Source: Patescibacteria group bacterium
GTDB lineage: Bacteria > Patescibacteriota > Minisyncoccia > RBG-13-40-8-A
Direction of reading: 5' to 3'
Assembly (NCBI GenBank): GCA_043807255.1
Contig: JAZDGD010000012.1
Coordinates: forward strand, 1-39,709
DNA length: 39,709 nt
The position numbers were made by a program, and so were the translations under genes. Shown here piece by piece: positions 1-39,709 of the stretch (within the stretch, counting starts at the first letter, position 1; every line of letters begins with the position of its first letter). Under the pieces are notes generated by a model, which was not told where the DNA came from, ran no database searches, and saw only the letters and a list, made by a program, of their open reading frames with translations.

Positions 1-1
1 A

Positions 2-124
2 TTAAAAAGAACGATTGATAACAAACTTAATATACTTTACCAAATCAATCAAAAGGTCGATGTTAACAAAAAGATTTCAGTCAGATTTCAAACCACGAGA
101 CCAGAACCTGTTTCGGTCAGATAG
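2..124 (+). CDS. possible 3' end of a gene running in from the left edge
   Basis: Frame 2 is open from the window start to TAG at 122-124 (LKRTIDNKLNILYQ...PVSVR*), followed by a hairpin at ~143-175; no recognisable motif. Confidence 0.3.
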   Translation, partial: LKRTIDNKLNILYQINQKVDVNKKISVRFQTTRPEPVSVR

Positions 125-142
125 TTGGATGATTTGACACGA

Positions 143-28167: not shown

Positions 28168-28832
28168 TCTCCTATATTGTCTATTTTCATTTCTTCCAGC
28201 CATTTATTTATATCTTTCTTGTATTTCTCTTGTCCACCAAATACATCTAATAATAATTCTCTGTTTGTAACCGATGGAAAATTTTTCTTGCCACAATAAT
28301 CTAAATGACTAGACCATCTATAATTATTTAAATATTTTATTGCTTTATCGTGATCTTTTATTTTTCTGTTTCGCCATTCTGAAAATTCCATATCAAGAGG
28401 ATTAAGATGAATATAATATGGAAGGTTTAAAAAATGATTGGATTTACTAATTAGAATTGATTTATAACGACTTTCGAATAAAGCACCCTTACGTTTATGT
28501 TTTATATTAAAATATTTGGCATATCCCATGTCTAGTTTTCTCAAAAATTTTGAAATTCCATTTTCAATAATCGGACCGAGCAATAAATGAAAATGATTCG
28601 GCATTAAACAAAAAGCATAAATATTCACCATTGGTTTTCTTGGCTGTTTAGTACTACGACCTACGAGGTCGTTGTCTTTATTGGATGCTTTAAAACGATC
28701 AGACGTAGAACCGATAACTCTGTTATCATTAAATTCGTATAAATCATGAATGAATCTTAAATGATCTTGTTGATCAAGAAATATTTTGCGTTTATCTACG
28801 CCCCTATTCAGGACATGATATATGTCAGCCAT
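28164..28832 (-). mobile_element. REP-associated tyrosine transposase (RAYT / Y1_Tnp HUH family)
   Basis: YHVLNRG, CLMPNHFHLL (HUH), GALFESRYKS, YIHLNP (catalytic Tyr), YRWSS; flanked by palindromes. Confidence 0.9.
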
Positions 28833-31931: not shown

Positions 31932-32378
31932 TCAAATGCCCGGCAGACCACTGATTTCTTTTTCTTTTGAATCTAATGCTCTGTTTACTAATTTGTCGGC
32001 GTCGGCGTTTTCGTTACGGGGAATATGTATGAATGCAACTTTTGCAAAATCAATCTTCAAATTCCAAACTTTCAAAAACAATTGTTCAATTCTTCTATCT
32101 AAAATTTTATATTGACCATTCATTTGTCTGGCCAAAAACTCACTATCGGTTCTAATCTCAACTTCCATCGTTTTAGCTTTTTTCCCGCCAAATAAAAGTT
32201 TTGCTTTTTGTAATCCAAAAATCACCGCTTCGTACTCCGCTTCGTTATTTGTTGCTCTACCAATTTTTTCTCCATATTCTTTAATCACTTTCCCCTTCTC
32301 ATCACAAAAAACAATCCCAATCCCCGCTGGTCCTGGATTCCCCCTACTCCCCCCGTCTGTATAAATAATTGTTTTCAT
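31932..32378 (-). CDS. rnhA: ribonuclease HI family protein
   Basis: YTDGGSRGNPGPAG, TNNEAEY, DSE, N..AD.L.N; ATGA overlap with the recJ stop. Confidence 0.92.
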   Translation of the reverse strand: MKTIIYTDGGSRGNPGPAGIGIVFCDEKGKVIKEYGEKIGRATNNEAEYEAVIFGLQKAKLLFGGKKAKTMEVEIRTDSEFLARQMNGQYKILDRRIEQLFLKVWNLKIDFAKVAFIHIPRNENADADKLVNRALDSKEKEISGLPGI

Positions 32379-34096
32379 ATCTTTTTTAAATCGCTTATTT
32401 TTAATTGTAATTCTTTGTTGCCATTCCACTCGTTGGACAGCATTTCAAACACAATATCAACCCTGTCTCCTAATTCTATCTTATCACAAGAATCTACCAA
32501 ATTAAAGCCAATTGCACCGAATTTTTTGGTGCCGGTTTCGGTTTCTTTTTCCAACGACAATTTCAAATGATTCTCTTTCGAGCCCACATTCCTCATGCCA
32601 TTAATCTTTAAGTCTTTAAGTAAAAACAATGGCCTAGAATTTTCTCCTCCAAATGGTTCAAATTTCGCAATTTCATCAAAAACCTTCCAATTTAAATCAT
32701 CAACAATCATTTCCGCATCAATATTCAAAAATGCTGTCATGTCTGTTTTTTTTATCTTCTTTTCGGCAACTTTCTCTAGAATTTTTTTGATTTTTTCTAA
32801 GTTACATACATCCGCTCTAAACGCGCCAGCAAATGGATGGCCACCATATTCATCTAACAACTCCTTACATTCATCCAGCGCTTTAATTACGTCAAAACCA
32901 GCAATTCCCCCTCTCGCCGAACAAACGGCATGGTTTTTAGACAACTGACAAATAAATGCTGGCATCCAAAATTCATCTTTTAATTTCTGCGCAACCAACC
33001 CCACTAATCCCGATGTCCATGTTTCATCTCCTTCAAAAATAATCTTGCTTTTGTTTGAATCCTTTTTCACTCTTTCTCGTGCTTCTTTAATAATTCTTTC
33101 CATGTGTCGTTGTCTTTCTTGATTCCGAGTTTCAAGTTGTTGTGATAATCTGTCTGCTTCAGCGATATTTTTAGTTAGAAGCAATTCAAAGGCGACGATA
33201 CCATGATCGACACGAGAAGCGGCGTTTATTCTCGGACCAAGAATAAATCCTATGGTGTATGTAGTTAGATTCCCCGTCACTCGCGCCTTTTCCATTAAAA
33301 TCTTTAATCCCAATCTTTTTGTTTGTGACAGGACAATTAGTCCATATTTTACAAGCGTTCTGTTTTCGCCAAATAAAAGCATGGAATCCGTTACAGTTGA
33401 AATCGCTACCAAATCCAATAACCATTTTTCCCAAGAAATTGGGAGTTTTTTTGTAATGCGTACTGCTTGCAATAATTTGAATGCCACTCCAGCACCAGAC
33501 AATTCATTAAATGGATATTTACATTGTTTTTGTTTTGGGTCAATAATTGCAAATGCTTTTGGTAATTTGGGCCTGCCTGCCGATGAGGCAGGAATTTCGT
33601 GGTGATCAACAATAATTACGTCAATGCCTAGTTTATTTGCTAATGCCACTTCTTCAACATCAGTAACTCCACAATCAACAGTTAAAACAAGGGTTATTTT
33701 TTTCTTTGAAATATCTTCTATTGATTTTAAATTTAGTCCATATCCTTCAGCGTTCCTGTCGGGAATATAAACCTCTGGCTTAATATTATAAACTTCTAGA
33801 ATTTCATGCAGAATGATTCCGCCACAGATTCCATCAGCATCGTAATCAGCAAAAATCGCTACTTTTTCATTGTTTTTTTCCGCTTTTTCGAGTCGCTTTA
33901 TGGTTTTTTTGACATCTTTTAACAAAAACGGATCATGCAAATCTTGATCATAGTCGGGACTAAAAAACTCATCAATTGCTTTTTGAGTTTTAAGTCCCCT
34001 GTCCCAAAGCAACTGAAGAGTTAATTTTGAAAATTCCGGAAATTTCTCTAAAAATTCTTTAGGCGCCTTTTTATTTATTTTCCAAACTTTATTCAT
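32375..34096 (-). CDS. recJ: single-stranded-DNA exonuclease RecJ
   Basis: DYDADG, TVDCG, DHH, GPRINAASR, GGHPFA, EPFG. Confidence 0.95.
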   Translation of the reverse strand: MNKVWKINKKAPKEFLEKFPEFSKLTLQLLWDRGLKTQKAIDEFFSPDYDQDLHDPFLLKDVKKTIKRLEKAEKNNEKVAIFADYDADGICGGIILHEILEVYNIKPEVYIPDRNAEGYGLNLKSIEDISKKKITLVLTVDCGVTDVEEVALANKLGIDVIIVDHHEIPASSAGRPKLPKAFAIIDPKQKQCKYPFNELSGAGVAFKLLQAVRITKKLPISWEKWLLDLVAISTVTDSMLLFGENRTLVKYGLIVLSQTKRLGLKILMEKARVTGNLTTYTIGFILGPRINAASRVDHGIVAFELLLTKNIAEADRLSQQLETRNQERQRHMERIIKEARERVKKDSNKSKIIFEGDETWTSGLVGLVAQKLKDEFWMPAFICQLSKNHAVCSARGGIAGFDVIKALDECKELLDEYGGHPFAGAFRADVCNLEKIKKILEKVAEKKIKKTDMTAFLNIDAEMIVDDLNWKVFDEIAKFEPFGGENSRPLFLLKDLKINGMRNVGSKENHLKLSLEKETETGTKKFGAIGFNLVDSCDKIELGDRVDIVFEMLSNEWNGNKELQLKISDLKKI

Positions 34097-34099
34097 TAT

Positions 34100-35272
34100 T
34101 TATTTCCTCAGTGCCTCAATTCCTGGCAAAGTGCCTTCGCTTAAATAATCCAACATTGCGCCACCGCCAGTGGACATCCAGTCAAAGACTTTTTCTTTAT
34201 TATTCTCATTTATGAAGGCATTAGTGTCTCCCCCGCCAACAATTGCATATGCCCCACTTTTATCAATTGCCTCAATTAGTTCCTTGGAGGCAATATCGAA
34301 TGGTTTTTGCGTGATCAGCCCCAAAGGACCATTCCAAACAATTGTTTTTGAGTTTAAAATCAAATCACTGAACAGGTGGACTGTTTTTGGCCCGACGTCT
34401 AATGCTTTTTCGTACCATTCTAAGGGAGCAACGTCCCTATATGTTACGCCCTTGCCGTCCCAAATTCCCAAATCAAGAGGTAAAAATAATTTTGATCCAC
34501 TGGCTGATGGATTTAAATTTATTTTTTTGATTTCATTAAAAGAATCTTTGTCGATAATTGATTCGCCCATAGAAATGCCCTGACTGGCAAAAATTGTATT
34601 TGATAGTGCCCCGCCAACCAAAACTTTGTCTGCAATTTTTAAAAATTTATTAATTACTTTTATTTTTGTTTCCATTTTCGCTCCACCAATAATTGCAATC
34701 AATGGTTTTTCCGGTTTATTTAAAATTTTGTTTAATTCTTCAATTTCTTTTTCTAAAATAAATCCCGCCGTTGATGGTAAAAATTTTGGAATGCCAACAA
34801 TTGAAGCATGCTCCCTGTGAGAATTAGCAAACGCTTCATTAACGTAAATGTTCCCCAATTTCGCCAATTTTTCAGCAAATTCAGACGAGTTTTCTTCTTC
34901 TTCTTTCCAAAATCTAAGGTTTTCTAAAAGCAAAATATCTCCAAACTCCATTTTTTTTATTTTGTCCTCAACCCTTCTCCCTAAAATGTCAGTTGAAAAT
35001 AAAATCTTTTTATTTAATAATTTTCCCAATTCTTCAGCAATCGGCTTTAAGGACATTTTACTATTTTTTTCTCCCCGTGGTCGACCAAGGTGCGAAATCA
35101 AAATAATTTTTGCTTTTTGTTTAATTAAATATTCTATGGTCAATAAGCTGTTTTTGATTCTAAAATTATCTAAAACATTTCCTTTTTCATCGACCGGAAC
35201 ATCAAAATCAACGCGTACTAATACGCGCTTATTTTTAACGTCAATCTTTTTTAAACTTTTAATTTTCTTCAT
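34100..35272 (-). CDS. pgk: phosphoglycerate kinase
   Basis: RVDFDVP, SHLGRP, LLENLRF, GGAK, WNGPLG, GGGDT, STGGGA. Confidence 0.97.
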   Translation of the reverse strand: MKKIKSLKKIDVKNKRVLVRVDFDVPVDEKGNVLDNFRIKNSLLTIEYLIKQKAKIILISHLGRPRGEKNSKMSLKPIAEELGKLLNKKILFSTDILGRRVEDKIKKMEFGDILLLENLRFWKEEEENSSEFAEKLAKLGNIYVNEAFANSHREHASIVGIPKFLPSTAGFILEKEIEELNKILNKPEKPLIAIIGGAKMETKIKVINKFLKIADKVLVGGALSNTIFASQGISMGESIIDKDSFNEIKKINLNPSASGSKLFLPLDLGIWDGKGVTYRDVAPLEWYEKALDVGPKTVHLFSDLILNSKTIVWNGPLGLITQKPFDIASKELIEAIDKSGAYAIVGGGDTNAFINENNKEKVFDWMSTGGGAMLDYLSEGTLPGIEALRK

Positions 35273-35275
35273 TAT

Positions 35276-35971
35276 TTAAATAACTTGTATGGTTTTCACA
35301 AATTCTTCTGGTTTTAAACTCGCCCCGCCGACTAATGCTCCTTCATATCCGACACCAAGATAATCATTGATTATTTTACTGTCTACGCTTCCGCCATAAA
35401 TTATCTTCCCATTGAATCTTTGTTTAATAAAATCAAGTTTTTGTTTAGCATAATCAGCCGAACAAATTTCTCCGCCACTGGTGCTTATTGCCCAGACCGG
35501 TTCGTAAGCAATAATTATTTTATTCTTGTCTTCTTCTGGCATGCCATCTAAATCTCTTTTTAATTGATTTTCGATGACCGTTTCTGCGTTTTCCCCTTTT
35601 CTTTCTCCGACACATAAAATCGGAATTAATCCTGCGCCTAACACAGATTTTAATTTCTTATTAATTATTTCATCTGTTTCATTAAAATAATTTCTCCTTT
35701 CAGAGTGCCCAATAATTACATATTCAATTCCCATGTCTTTAATCATTTTGGGGCTAATTTCTCCGGTATATGGTCCTTTTTCTTCCCAAAAACAGTTCTG
35801 AGCACATAGTTTTGCTTTTTTTAAAAATGGCAACCAAATAAACGGGGCGGCAATCAAAACTTCCACGTTTTTTGCTTTTTTAATGGTTTTTTTGATACCC
35901 CCAAAAAGTTTTCTTGCTTTCCCTAAAGACGACGGGTTCATTTTCCAATTTGCGATGATTAATGGTTTCAT
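35276..35971 (-). CDS. tpiA: triosephosphate isomerase
   Basis: ANWKMN, GHSERR, AYEPVWAI, YGGSV, LVGGASL. Confidence 0.97.
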   Translation of the reverse strand: MKPLIIANWKMNPSSLGKARKLFGGIKKTIKKAKNVEVLIAAPFIWLPFLKKAKLCAQNCFWEEKGPYTGEISPKMIKDMGIEYVIIGHSERRNYFNETDEIINKKLKSVLGAGLIPILCVGERKGENAETVIENQLKRDLDGMPEEDKNKIIIAYEPVWAISTSGGEICSADYAKQKLDFIKQRFNGKIIYGGSVDSKIINDYLGVGYEGALVGGASLKPEEFVKTIQVI

Positions 35972-35975
35972 ATTT

Positions 35976-37034
35976 TTAAATAAATTTTCTCAAAAACTTA
36001 GCAACCTCTTCTGGTTTAATTGTTAATACCTCAACGCCCGTTCCAAGTTCAAATCCTGCCCAAGTATTTGTTTTTGGCAATATTTCAATGTGCCAGTGAT
36101 AATATCCATAATCTTTACCATCACAGGGTGCAGTATGAATAAAAAAATTATAAGCAGGATTCTTTAATCCTTTATATAAGCCATACAATGCTTTTTGAAG
36201 TGCTTCGGCCAAATATTTTATTTCTATTTCAGTTATTTTTTCGAAATTTGAAAGGTGTTTGCGTGGATAAATTCTTAATTCAAAATTTACTCTTGGCACA
36301 AATGGCGCAAAAACTACAAAATATTCGTTTTGAAATATGCATCTTTTTTCTTCCTTCTCCCATTCAATCATTTCACAATGCACACATTTTTTATTTTCAT
36401 TATGATACTTCCTCGCGCCATCTAAACTCCTTCTTGTATCGGCTGGTAAAATCGGCATAGCTACCAACTGCGTATGCGGATGAGGAATGCTTGCCCCCGC
36501 CTCTTTACCATGATTATGAAATATGAAAATATAATTTACAAAACGATGATCCATTAATGCCAAATATCTTTCTTGGTATGCTTTTATGACCTCTTCGACG
36601 TTTTCTATGGGCATTATTGCTAAATGTTTTTTATGATCCCTGGTAATAATTACCTCGTGAAAACCATTGCCCTGCATTAAATTATATGGCCCCTCTTTAC
36701 AAACTTCAAATGAACCACTGGGAACCAACATTGGATATTTGTTTTTTATAACCTGCAAACTCCAATCTTTGACTAATTTTTTTGCTCCTTTAATTTTTAT
36801 TTTTTTATTGTCCTTATAATAAATCAAAACCGGCTCTTCATGGCCAGACGATTGTGGATCTTCAAATGGACATTCTGAAATTGGTTGTTCAAATTTTTCT
36901 TCACTTTTGTTAGCAAAAAATTGCGGTTTTTTAGCGCGACCAGTTGCAATAATCATCCAATCCCCACTAACAAGGTCTTGTCTTAATTCGGAACCACTAG
37001 ACAATTTAGTTTTCTTTAAATTATTTAATTTCAT
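35976..37034 (-). CDS. galT: galactose-1-phosphate uridylyltransferase family protein
   Basis: CPF, NKYP, GASIPHPHTQ, HWHIEI, AGFELGTG. Confidence 0.92.
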   Translation of the reverse strand: MKLNNLKKTKLSSGSELRQDLVSGDWMIIATGRAKKPQFFANKSEEKFEQPISECPFEDPQSSGHEEPVLIYYKDNKKIKIKGAKKLVKDWSLQVIKNKYPMLVPSGSFEVCKEGPYNLMQGNGFHEVIITRDHKKHLAIMPIENVEEVIKAYQERYLALMDHRFVNYIFIFHNHGKEAGASIPHPHTQLVAMPILPADTRRSLDGARKYHNENKKCVHCEMIEWEKEEKRCIFQNEYFVVFAPFVPRVNFELRIYPRKHLSNFEKITEIEIKYLAEALQKALYGLYKGLKNPAYNFFIHTAPCDGKDYGYYHWHIEILPKTNTWAGFELGTGVEVLTIKPEEVAKFLRKFI

Positions 37035-37806
37035 TTATCTTATATTTGTTGGTTATAAAATTATACTTGATTTTTAAAAGCTCAACAAAGGTTTTAATAT
37101 AAGAACTTAATTTAACCTTGCTTTCGCCTGGATTGTGCCAATCGACTGGCATTTCTTTGGTTTTAAATTTCATTTTCTTGGCTAATGCTAAAATTTCAAA
37201 ATCAAAACCCCAGCGCGTTAATGTTTGTTTTGGAAATATTGCTTCTGCTGATTTTTGATTAAAACACTTGAATCCACGCTGTGAATCTTTTATTTCCCAA
37301 AGACCAGCAACAATTCGAATAATATATTTTGAAACTCTCCCCAAAAATCTTCTATACCAAGCTGATTTCTCTTCAATCTTAGATCCCTTAACCTCAATTG
37401 ATCCAATCACAATATCATTACCATTATTAAATTCTGGCCAAAACAAATCCAGGTGATCAATTTTTGTAGAATTATCAGCATCCATAAACAATCGATATTC
37501 ACCCCTTGCTTCGAGCATGCCTTGTTTGGTTACATATCCTTTGCCGTGGTTTTCTTTGTTGTCAATAACTCTCAAATTTTTAATTAATTCGCCTGTTTTT
37601 GTGGCCACAATAGCTGTATTGTCCTTTGACCCATCGCTAATAACTATAATTTCGTAATTACCTCGCCCGCCATCGCTACGCGAAGGCGTTGCGGGCGGGT
37701 AGTTTTGTTGTGACAAATATCTGTCTATATCTAAAAGCGTTACCGCAATTCTTTTTTCTTCGTTATACGCCGGTATTACAACCGACAAATGTATTTTATT
37801 GTCCAT
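37021..37806 (-). CDS. GT2 polyprenyl-phosphate beta-glucosyltransferase (Alg5-like)
   Basis: VIPAYNEEKRI, DGSKD, NHGKG, FMDADNST, DSQRGFK, WGFDFE; start at MDNKI after a TGGTATAAT promoter. Confidence 0.9.
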   Translation of the reverse strand: MDNKIHLSVVIPAYNEEKRIAVTLLDIDRYLSQQNYPPATPSRSDGGRGNYEIIVISDGSKDNTAIVATKTGELIKNLRVIDNKENHGKGYVTKQGMLEARGEYRLFMDADNSTKIDHLDLFWPEFNNGNDIVIGSIEVKGSKIEEKSAWYRRFLGRVSKYIIRIVAGLWEIKDSQRGFKCFNQKSAEAIFPKQTLTRWGFDFEILALAKKMKFKTKEMPVDWHNPGESKVKLSSYIKTFVELLKIKYNFITNKYKINEIK

Positions 37807-37808
37807 AC

Positions 37809-38786
37809 CTAAATTATACCACAAATCAGTTTATTTTTTAACTTGTACCCATTACAATGACTTAAAATCCCTAAATACGATTGAAGATTTTTGTTATTTA
37901 TTCTTTTAAACATTCGTTTCTTCGTTTTGGTGCGTAAAACTCGATAATGTGGCAAATTCACATAACCCAGAAAATCAACTCCCGAAAATAAGGTTTTTAT
38001 GAAAACCTTATCGGGATGTAAAATCAATTTTAATCTTTCTTCTAAAAATTTTGCGATATCAAAAATAATATTCTCTAAATACAATTTATCGGTATGCAAA
38101 ACAATAAAATCGTCTGCATAACGAATATAATGTTTTATCTTTAATTTATGTTTAACAAAATTATCGAGTTCATTCATATAAATATTCGCAAATAATTGAG
38201 AAGTTAGATTGCCCAAGGGCAAGCCAACCCCTTTGCGTATAGACGAAAAGCTTTCTATGATTTCTTTCAATAGTTGAATAATATTATCGTCAGGAACATA
38301 AACACGTAAAACATCTAGAAGAATTTGATGATCTATGTTGGCAAAAAACTTTTTTATGTCACATTTTAGTATCCAATAAGTACATGTATTATTTTTAGTG
38401 CCGATATATGTAAATCGTCTAAATCGATTAATTGCTCGATGTGTTCCTTTGTCGTCTCTGCACGAAAAAGAATCGCTGATAAAAATTCGATCGAAAAACG
38501 GATACAAAATTCGATAGACAGCACGGTGCAAAATTCTGTCACGCACAGTCGCCTTATGGATATTTCTTGGTTTTGGATCGCAAACGTTAAACGCTTGATA
38601 ATCTCCGTGTTTGTAGGTATGATTAAATAAGTCGTGACGAAGCTTTAAAATATTATCCATTAAATTCATTTCAAATTCTCCCACGTCAATTCTTTTGCCC
38701 TTGCCTTTCTTAAATTCTTGCCAAGCAATTAATAAATTATCAATATTAATTATATCCTCAAAATTATGAGTCAATTGAATTTTCAT
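37809..38786 (-). CDS. DGR reverse transcriptase (325 aa)
   Basis: RDRILH, KGTH, KCDIKKFFANIDH, LPLGNLTSQ (DGR-type motif 4), YIRYADD, DFLGY; no maturase X/En domain; next to avd and TR. Confidence 0.93.
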   Translation of the reverse strand: MKIQLTHNFEDIINIDNLLIAWQEFKKGKGKRIDVGEFEMNLMDNILKLRHDLFNHTYKHGDYQAFNVCDPKPRNIHKATVRDRILHRAVYRILYPFFDRIFISDSFSCRDDKGTHRAINRFRRFTYIGTKNNTCTYWILKCDIKKFFANIDHQILLDVLRVYVPDDNIIQLLKEIIESFSSIRKGVGLPLGNLTSQLFANIYMNELDNFVKHKLKIKHYIRYADDFIVLHTDKLYLENIIFDIAKFLEERLKLILHPDKVFIKTLFSGVDFLGYVNLPHYRVLRTKTKKRMFKRINNKNLQSYLGILSHCNGYKLKNKLICGII

Positions 38787-39176
38787 AAAAATAATTCTTT
38801 TAATAATACCCCCCCCCAACGAAGTTCGGTTCCGATTATTCGGAGATTTATTGAAATTTACAAGCTCTGGCACGAATATCTGCAAAATTTTCCCAAAACT
38901 TCTCGTTATTCACTCGGCTTAAAAATCGATTCATTGTTCATCGAAATAATTGGATCATTGTTTTCTGCCAGTTATTTATCTGGACGAGAAAAATTACCCA
39001 TTTTATCAAAAGCATCAAACAATTTGGACATGCTTAAATTCTTTTTGGAAGTCGCGTGGGAGATAAAATTACTGGATAATAAAAAATACATCGTAATTTC
39101 CGAAAAGCTGAATGAAATTGGAAATATGCTTGGCGGATGGATTAGAAAAATTATAACTCAAACCCCGTCCAAATAA
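38766..39176 (+). CDS. avd: DGR accessory variability determinant (Avd four-helix bundle)
   Basis: FPK..RYSLG..I, LKFFL, EIGNMLGGW; 136 aa, lying between RT and TR. Confidence 0.88.
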   Translation: MSQLNFHKNNSFNNTPPQRSSVPIIRRFIEIYKLWHEYLQNFPKTSRYSLGLKIDSLFIEIIGSLFSASYLSGREKLPILSKASNNLDMLKFFLEVAWEIKLLDNKKYIVISEKLNEIGNMLGGWIRKIITQTPSK

Positions 39177-39186
39177 CGGGGTTTGA
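39158..39186. other. 11-bp hairpin at the avd stop / 3' of the TR
   Basis: TCAAACCCCGT-CCAAATA-ACGGGGTTTGA. Confidence 0.75.
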
Positions 39187-39201
39187 TAAAAATAAAACCA
39201 G

Positions 39202-39345
39202 TCGCGAGACAAGACGAAAACGAAAATGTTGTTCAGATTCCAGAGGTTGTCGGGATTGTCATAGTTGCTGTTGAGCCATCGTTCGTTGTCATCGTGATCC
39301 ACCTTGAAAATCTTGAGGTTGCCGTCCGAGTCAGTAATGCATAAA
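39202..39345 (-). repeat. DGR template repeat (TR); 5' boundary approximate
   Basis: Reads DSDGNLKIFKVDHDDNERWLNSNYDNPDNLWNLNNIFVFVLSR with 7 AAC + 2 AAT codons; 39202-39226 is identical to 39685-39709. Confidence 0.85.
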
Positions 39346-39560
39346 ACGTCTTCTGTGCCACTGCTTCTCGAATTCTCTTGAAGCTGTATTTTATTCAGCA
39401 TCTAAAATGCTCTAACGTTTTACACCGAATAGCTTTATTTTTTAACTTATATATATCGCGCCATTTTAAGCCTTAGCCGAAAATGTTCTGGACAAATATA
39501 TAAATTGGGTTCGGTAGCGGATAATCTTAATCGTCCGCATATTCACCTACTGCCATAAAT

Positions 39561-39569
39561 AGTATAACA
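39561..39569 (-). promoter_or_regulatory. extended -10 promoter candidate for the TR RNA
   Basis: TGTTATACT on the minus strand just downstream of the target-gene hairpin. Confidence 0.5.
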
Positions 39570-39577
39570 CGAATCAT

Positions 39578-39615
39578 TAAAAAATCCCCGTCCTCCTTTT
39601 CAGAAGGACGGGGAT
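39578..39615 (-). terminator. GAAA-loop hairpin downstream of the VR (terminator and/or DGR homing hairpin)
   Basis: ATCCCCGTCCTTCT-GAAA-AGGAGGACGGGGAT running into a T-tract on the minus strand. Confidence 0.75.
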
Positions 39616-39680
39616 ACGTTTTTTCCAAGAGTCCAAGTCCTAGGGTTGAGAACCCAAGAACCGTAGACCCAAGAAAAAAG

Positions 39681-39709
39681 CTACTCGCGAGACAAGACGA
39701 AAACGAAAA
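39681..39709 (-). CDS. 3' end of the DGR target gene (VR 3' end / IMH region), truncated by the window edge
   Basis: ...FVFVLSRE* (TAG at 39683-39681); 25 nt identical to the TR 3' end, in the same reading frame. Confidence 0.8.

Follow-up and report, generated by a model that had tools for sequence, protein, structure and literature searches.

Two contigs of one patescibacterial genome stop, from opposite sides, within the variable region (VR) of a diversity-generating retroelement (DGR), and each stops one base short of a position that is an adenine in the template repeat (TR; 39227 on one side and 39320 on the other). This two-sided break is best read as a sign that the sample contained two or more VR alleles side by side, and we consider it quite likely that the DGR accounts for the break through VR alleles that differed among cells. 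The window analysed here is the entire contig C12 (G000:C12:1-39709, 39,709 nucleotides) of a genome, G000, that comprises 12 contigs and 556,371 bases and is 93% complete. The preliminary description had called the element a DGR, and profile matches and repeats located all of the expected parts. Judged by its sequence, the DGR in the window is complete, with a reverse transcriptase (RT), the accessory protein Avd, the TR and the 3' end of the VR. Among DGRs of the candidate-phyla-radiation (CPR) type it is ordinary.

Read along the minus strand, the element runs from the target-gene tail through a terminator-like hairpin, a spacer, the TR and an antisense avd to the RT (Table 1). The RT matched Pfam RVT_1 with an E value of 3e-22, and its translation contains YADD and LGNLTSQ, which we take to be DGR RT motifs. 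Its best solved relative was 8ub7_A (328 aa, E 9.3e-40), presumably the Bordetella enzyme, an entry that the structure table itself labels only 'Reverse transcriptase'; the next-best solved chains were, by name, retron-type and group II intron RTs at about 1e-22. An NCBIfam search of the RT gave no model above cutoff. The protein was 47-71% identical to RTs that lie beside TR-VR pairs with A-specific mismatches (loci L004, L006, L015, and L018), and the RT adjoining the repeats of the window is of the DGR type. Avd was recognized by NCBIfam NF033474 (DivGenRetAVD) at 81.6 bits against a cutoff of 80 and by Pfam bAvd with an E value of 2.4e-15, and a phmmer search of it against solved chains returned no match. 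The translation of the TR aligned with positions 164-208 of the target-family profile. The VR lies at the 3' end of the target gene and terminates 2 codons before its stop. Across the 94 nt of TR that correspond to the unassembled VR, the adenines fall mainly on the first two codon positions (14, 19, and 2 at positions 1, 2, and 3, respectively).

Table 1. Coordinates of the predicted DGR features in the window and of the corresponding hairpin regions in related loci
Feature	Position	Strand	Remarks
DGR reverse transcriptase, 325 aa from inner ATG	37809..38786	-	listed ORF extends to 38885
Avd accessory protein	38766..39176	+	between TR and RT, antisense to both
Strong hairpin, 16 nt past TR end, TR-sense strand	39158..39186	-	12 pairs; folding z-score -4.4
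Template repeat (TR), 137 nt, 40 coding-strand adenines	about 39202..39338	-	matches VR 3' end and last 18 nt of C1
TR segment with VR counterpart unassembled	39227..39320	-	94 nt, 35 A, 7 AAC and 2 AAT codons
Terminator-like hairpin then T run, downstream of target gene	39584..39615	-	14 pairs, 8 G-C
Post-VR flank, differs from TR flank (IMH-like vs IMH*-like)	39671..39684	-	includes target stop TAG 39681-39683
VR 3' end	39685..39709	-	equals TR 39202-39226; contig C12 terminates here
Hairpin regions in relatives	L004:5150-5215, L006:5935-6000, L015:1335-1400, L018:5088-5153, L012:4268-4333	TR-sense	folding

The preliminary description, made from the letters of the window alone, had left its reading conditional on position 39709 being a contig end. 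It is one: the window spans the whole of C12, and the cut is not arbitrary. The stretch that it had described as common to VR and TR was recovered letter for letter over 25 nt on the plus strand, 39685-39709 against 39202-39226. Its statement that this stretch has no adenine on the coding (minus) strand holds for 39686-39709; position 39685 is an A common to VR and TR. Position 39227, named there as the first TR adenine upstream, is T on the plus strand and hence a coding-strand A, and the window stops at the matching VR position. About 36 TR adenines had been claimed for 39227-39330, which agrees with our count of 36 T on the plus strand; 39227-39320 contains 35. A wider repeat, D1, pairs 39188-39226 with 39671-39709 at 87% identity over 39 nt with a start-to-start spacing of 483 nt. 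All five of its mismatches lie within the 14-nt flank 39671..39684, i.e., 5 of 14 bases differ after the shared 25 nt. This pair of flanks resembles IMH and IMH*, which the available part of PMC5758913 defines as elements at the VR end and the TR end, respectively, and would be an IMH-like pair on sequence grounds. Two of the genome's 24 contig ends lie inside a single 137-nt element, where simple arithmetic gives a random expectation of about 0.006.

A blastn search of the TR region against the genome's 12 contigs returned one further match, between the last 18 nt of contig C1 and TR 39321-39338. This 18-nt match has 1 mismatch, located at a TR adenine (A to T), and includes a stretch of 14 exact bases; the TR adenine just beyond the match opens the first AAC codon. 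C1 ends within an open frame, 182 codons from its ATG (L002:9455-10000), that forms the 5' part of the target gene. On C12, the target C-terminus reads ...IFVFVLSRE followed by TAG, and the frame FVFVLSRE* matches the C-termini of homologues. The unassembled VR is exactly 94 nt, which makes 31 codons and 1 base and keeps the frame; the extra base and the first two of the C12 reverse strand give ATT. Joined in this way, the target has 182+31+1+8 = 222 aa, the same length as homologues P0002, P0004, P0006, and P0008. Homologue P0010, which is 88% identical and has an intact C-terminus, contains 32 residues between the same anchors and ends in FVFVLSRE as well. In total, 43 nt of the VR of this genome were assembled (18 on C1 and 25 on C12), and they differ from the TR by 1 mismatch, the TR adenine already mentioned. 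Based on frame, length, and family logic, C1 probably carries the remainder of the target gene and adjoins C12. C1 also passes four TR-adenine positions (39338, 39335, 39331, and 39325) unbroken, with one changed and three unchanged. These four positions are fixed here, so not every adenine position varies in the population; the matching residues are variable in a related cluster.

The neighbourhoods of the two contigs were inspected as well. Upstream of the target on C1 (L002:4601-9279) stands a row of ribosomal proteins, SecY, Adk, and Map, named from their translations. C12 carries a row at 32375-37824 with a domain-tested glycosyltransferase, a 352-aa ORF, TpiA, Pgk, and RecJ, the last three read from translations. 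Between the C1 ribosomal-protein/SecY/Adk/Map row and the C12 glycosyltransferase-to-RecJ row the cassette would sit. The closed same-genus genome G002 possesses target, TR, (avd), and RT, and none of the C1 or C12 flanking genes was found within 19 kb of them. Its cassette is thus in another neighbourhood and neither supports nor counters the adjacency of C1 and C12. An intact target paralogue is present in the same genome at G000:C4:57142-57924; it is 37% identical over residues 66-182 and carries the family C-terminal motif. We considered it as a second VR of the same TR and rejected it, as it has no nucleotide match to the TR.

Eighteen related loci from metagenome contigs were used for comparison. 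In 16 of them the frame reaches a stop codon through the C-terminal stretch (one of these, L019, has a shorter C-terminus unlike the rest), and the remaining two run off the contig end, L014 at the VR start and L020 in the N-terminal part. Most share a common C-terminus, ...YPDQPNGEW..AMEPI.DSDG, then about 32 variable residues, then FVFV..RK. A TR was present 471-524 nt downstream in six loci, with the spacing of 483 nt in L004 equal to that of the window, and the order target, TR, antisense avd, and RT recurred in L004, L006, L015, and L018. Across the six loci with a TR, 118 of 132 TR-VR substitutions fell at TR adenines. When five relatives were aligned to the TR of the window, the columns of the missing 94 nt contained 95 of 114 mismatches, and TR adenines accounted for 90 of these 95. 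Within one 90%-identity protein cluster, nine members differ almost only in alignment columns 154-188, which correspond to the VR. Natural VR alleles exist in this family, and the pattern of substitutions indicates that the family is diversified by DGRs. For variation of the VR among cells, the signs are indirect and consist of the two-sided contig break and the allele series in the related cluster.

Four sequencing runs, none of them the source sample, were also compared at 80% likeness using contigs only, with shares of 0.11, 0.05, 0.00, and 0.00, respectively. Run X1 provided two short pieces without differences to the window (37267-37383 and 37804-38013) at a depth of about 3. The same run gave a 151-nt piece on TR 39266-39338 in which 13 of 73 letters differ; the differing positions are not listed, so it is not callable as a VR allele. 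Run X2 contained a relative about 94% alike, with a 697-nt contig that covers 39170-39708 and continues for 154 letters past the window end. Stretches of the window that these contigs leave uncovered carry no weight either way.

The ends of other contigs reveal how the genome was assembled. The 3' end of C6 and the 5' end of C12 share an overlap of exactly 141 nt (100% identical); at the 5' end of C7 the overlap is 99 nt with one mismatch, corresponding to window 43-141. These lengths bear the mark of a de Bruijn assembly with a last k of 141, and both 99 and 141 are presumably members of a common assembler's default k series. The ends of C6, C7, and C12 form a three-way fork at window 1-141, which is either a repeat or a strain variant. 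In addition, the first 400 nt at the 5' ends of C4 and C9 are 90.5% alike, and copies related to this start (about 82%) were found in the window at about 28174-28453 and also on C1 and C9. These copies form a dispersed repeat family that seems to break the assembly elsewhere.

In such an assembly a unitig extends no further than the last base that every path shares. With alleles that differ, this is the base before the first variable position on either side, as observed here. Under the DGR explanation, the TR would be copied into RNA, the RT would reverse-transcribe this RNA with errors at adenines, and the resulting cDNA would be pasted over the target VR. Cells of the sampled population would then carry different VR sequences. 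A de Bruijn assembler would follow the shared sequence on each side to the last base common to all alleles, and the allele-specific paths would be dropped or left as short unbinned pieces. The target gene would accordingly run from C1 through the 94 unassembled bases into 39709..39681, and reads would be expected to diverge at the two break points.

The preliminary description had proposed that the assembly broke where reads diverge and had drawn from this an active DGR and a VR that is hypervariable in the population. The first part gained ground, as the break is tied to the mutable span: C1 also stops before a TR adenine, and the 94 nt that are missing are adenine-rich. What is new here is the mate contig C1, which ends in the same manner as C12 and strengthens the allele reading. 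The second part goes beyond what a break can measure. Two alleles differing at both outer positions suffice to produce it, so the break is a measure of neither diversity nor present activity. Many alleles, hypervariability, and current activity may hold for this population as a further step from the same pattern. The break is also not a regular consequence of a DGR, since most relatives assemble through the VR.

The least remote of the other explanations, itself improbable in our estimate, is an old polymorphism, in which two or a few strains hold long-fixed VR alleles, the DGR may be silent, and the break says nothing on activity. A de Bruijn graph needs no more than two alleles to fork, and the C6/C7/C12 fork, where one base in 99 nt differs, hints that the sample contained more than one strain. 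Against this, the element has an intact RT, Avd, and TR, AAC codons are abundant in the TR, and the breaks lie at the outermost positions that vary in relatives, which is likelier with many alleles than with two. Less probable again is the alternative offered in the preliminary description, a repeat-induced break in which TR and VR were indistinguishable to the assembler, the contigs were cut at the edge of the shared stretch, and the VR is a single invariant sequence. The 25 identical TR/VR bases on the 3' side fit this account, and the position of the break alone does not discriminate, because a shared stretch necessarily ends at the first TR-VR difference. Forks of the repeat type also occur at the target family elsewhere (G102:C4/C33 after 55 nt and the start of G268:C12). 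However, contig ends that overlap by 141 and 99 nt indicate a k well above 25, and with k near 141 neither a 25-nt match on the C12 side nor a 14-nt exact match on the C1 side can merge the TR and VR paths. The TR is unbroken, though a collapsed repeat should break both copies; C1 shares with it only 14 exact bases (18 with one mismatch); and 16 of the 18 related loci were assembled through the C-terminal stretch to the stop. Taken together, these points make a repeat break at the TR unlikely.

We regard it as very improbable that C1 and C12 are not neighbours, in which case two different target genes would each be cut at the VR or coverage would have been lost locally. The adjacency rests on sequence logic, on which the synteny of G002 is silent, and the intact C4 paralogue makes the family multi-copy. 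On the other side, there is one 5' half and one 3' half, whose frame and length agree, the 12 contigs contain no further TR-like or VR-like sequence, and the C4 paralogue has no TR match. Our preferred reading remains a break caused by VR alleles that differed among cells.

A further structural element follows the TR. Hairpins were predicted 12-20 nt past the TR end in all six loci folded, with 9-13 pairs and z-scores of -3.2 to -4.9. Their stems vary in sequence among the six loci and are often followed by a U-rich tail. Transcription of the TR may be terminated separately. In the Bordetella phage model, RNA downstream of the TR primes cDNA synthesis. A stand-alone TR RNA is suggested by the hairpin that follows the TR in six of six loci and by the avd that lies antisense between TR and RT. 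A joint reading would combine a short stand-alone TR RNA, cDNA that is primed or handed over unlike in the Bordetella phage, and in situ activity high enough for assemblies to break exactly at the first and last mutable codon. We regard this combination as doubtful. If it were true, two-sided contig ends beside TR adenines could mark active DGRs in public assemblies without recourse to reads.

The prototype DGR of Bordetella phage BPP-1 (mtd-avd-TR-brt), as described in the available part of PMC5758913, likewise contains an RT, Avd, a TR, a VR at the 3' end of the target, and a VR flank that differs from that of the TR. In contrast to BPP-1, the avd of the window is antisense and located between TR and RT, and the element is chromosomal, beside the ribosomal-protein/secY/adk/map row, rather than in a phage. 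The target also differs, being a 222-aa protein without a Pfam match, and about 65 nt past the VR lies an inverted repeat that resembles a plain terminator. The order TR-(avd)-RT corresponds to architecture B3 of Wu et al. 2018, who also distinguish a 'CPR set', in the portion of PMC5758913 available, and the accessible part of Roux et al. (bioRxiv 10.1101/2020.04.01.020958) describes a 'DGR clade 2' that is cellular, aquatic, and Patescibacteria-restricted. As far as these portions describe CPR DGRs, the element of the window agrees with them in its order of target, TR, reversed avd, and RT and in its small genome (556 kb), and no difference in kind was found.

The 182-aa target fragment matched no usable Pfam or NCBIfam family; its only match was a chance-level one to GAPDH (E 0.003). 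A structure model was considered for homologue P0004, not for the target itself, built with 64 sequences and a pLDDT of 90.4. Residues 64-222 of this model aligned with 2y3c_A (TvpA) at a Z of 5.9, an rmsd of 3.8, and 133 aligned residues, and with 1yu0_A (Mtd) at a Z of 4.9, an rmsd of 3.6, and 117 aligned residues; the VR makes up the C-terminal strands of the model. These Z scores are middling, the sequence identity is 8-14%, and the P0004 model has an extra N-terminal three-helix part (residues 6-64) without counterpart in TvpA or Mtd. The list obtained by structural alignment was dominated by C-type lectins, with many C-type-lectin and FGE-type chains, and a Foldseek search of the model against the PDB returned nothing at E <= 0.001 (best E 0.085). 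Based on the model of its homologue, a C-type-lectin fold of the target is likely but not firm. A single-protein search detected the target family in 7 of 61 relatives, and a profile search detected it in 69 of a sample of 401 genomes of the class. Homologue hosts named in the sources include Candidatus Azambacteria, Yanofskybacteria, and Giovannonibacteria.

Herein, a known kind of system was seen via an assembly artefact, and its biology is ordinary for the field: one more CPR-type DGR with a small, C-type-lectin-like target from a family without a Pfam model. With the target gene divided between two contigs, the TR-VR pair of this genome will escape gene callers and DGR finders. Contig ends abutting TR adenines on both sides would be a cheap, read-free hint of in situ diversification, provided that allele diversity lies behind the break, and breaks of this two-sided kind, flush with the mutable span, may be useful as an assembly signature. 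No statement on contig ends as a hint of in situ diversification was found in the parts available of the literature searched (PMC4159848, PMC5758913, PMC10907252, and bioRxiv 10.1101/2020.04.01.020958), which is not proof of its absence from print.

Several other assemblies also end at or near the VR of this family. In G147 (L062, G147:C15:1-900), the contig likewise cuts the target-family gene at profile position 169, the same as here, and metagenome contig L014 ends at ...GMEPIVA. A contig of G247 (L063, G247:C57:1-800) enters the VR and then continues with other letters, which look to us like sequencing adapter. In G102, the start of C4 (L064) and the reverse complement of the C33 end (L066) are the same for 55 nt and then continue as two VR versions. 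G268:C12 (L065) starts 6 nt before its TR, and the end of G268:C13 (L040 end) carries a further AAC-rich stretch of another type.
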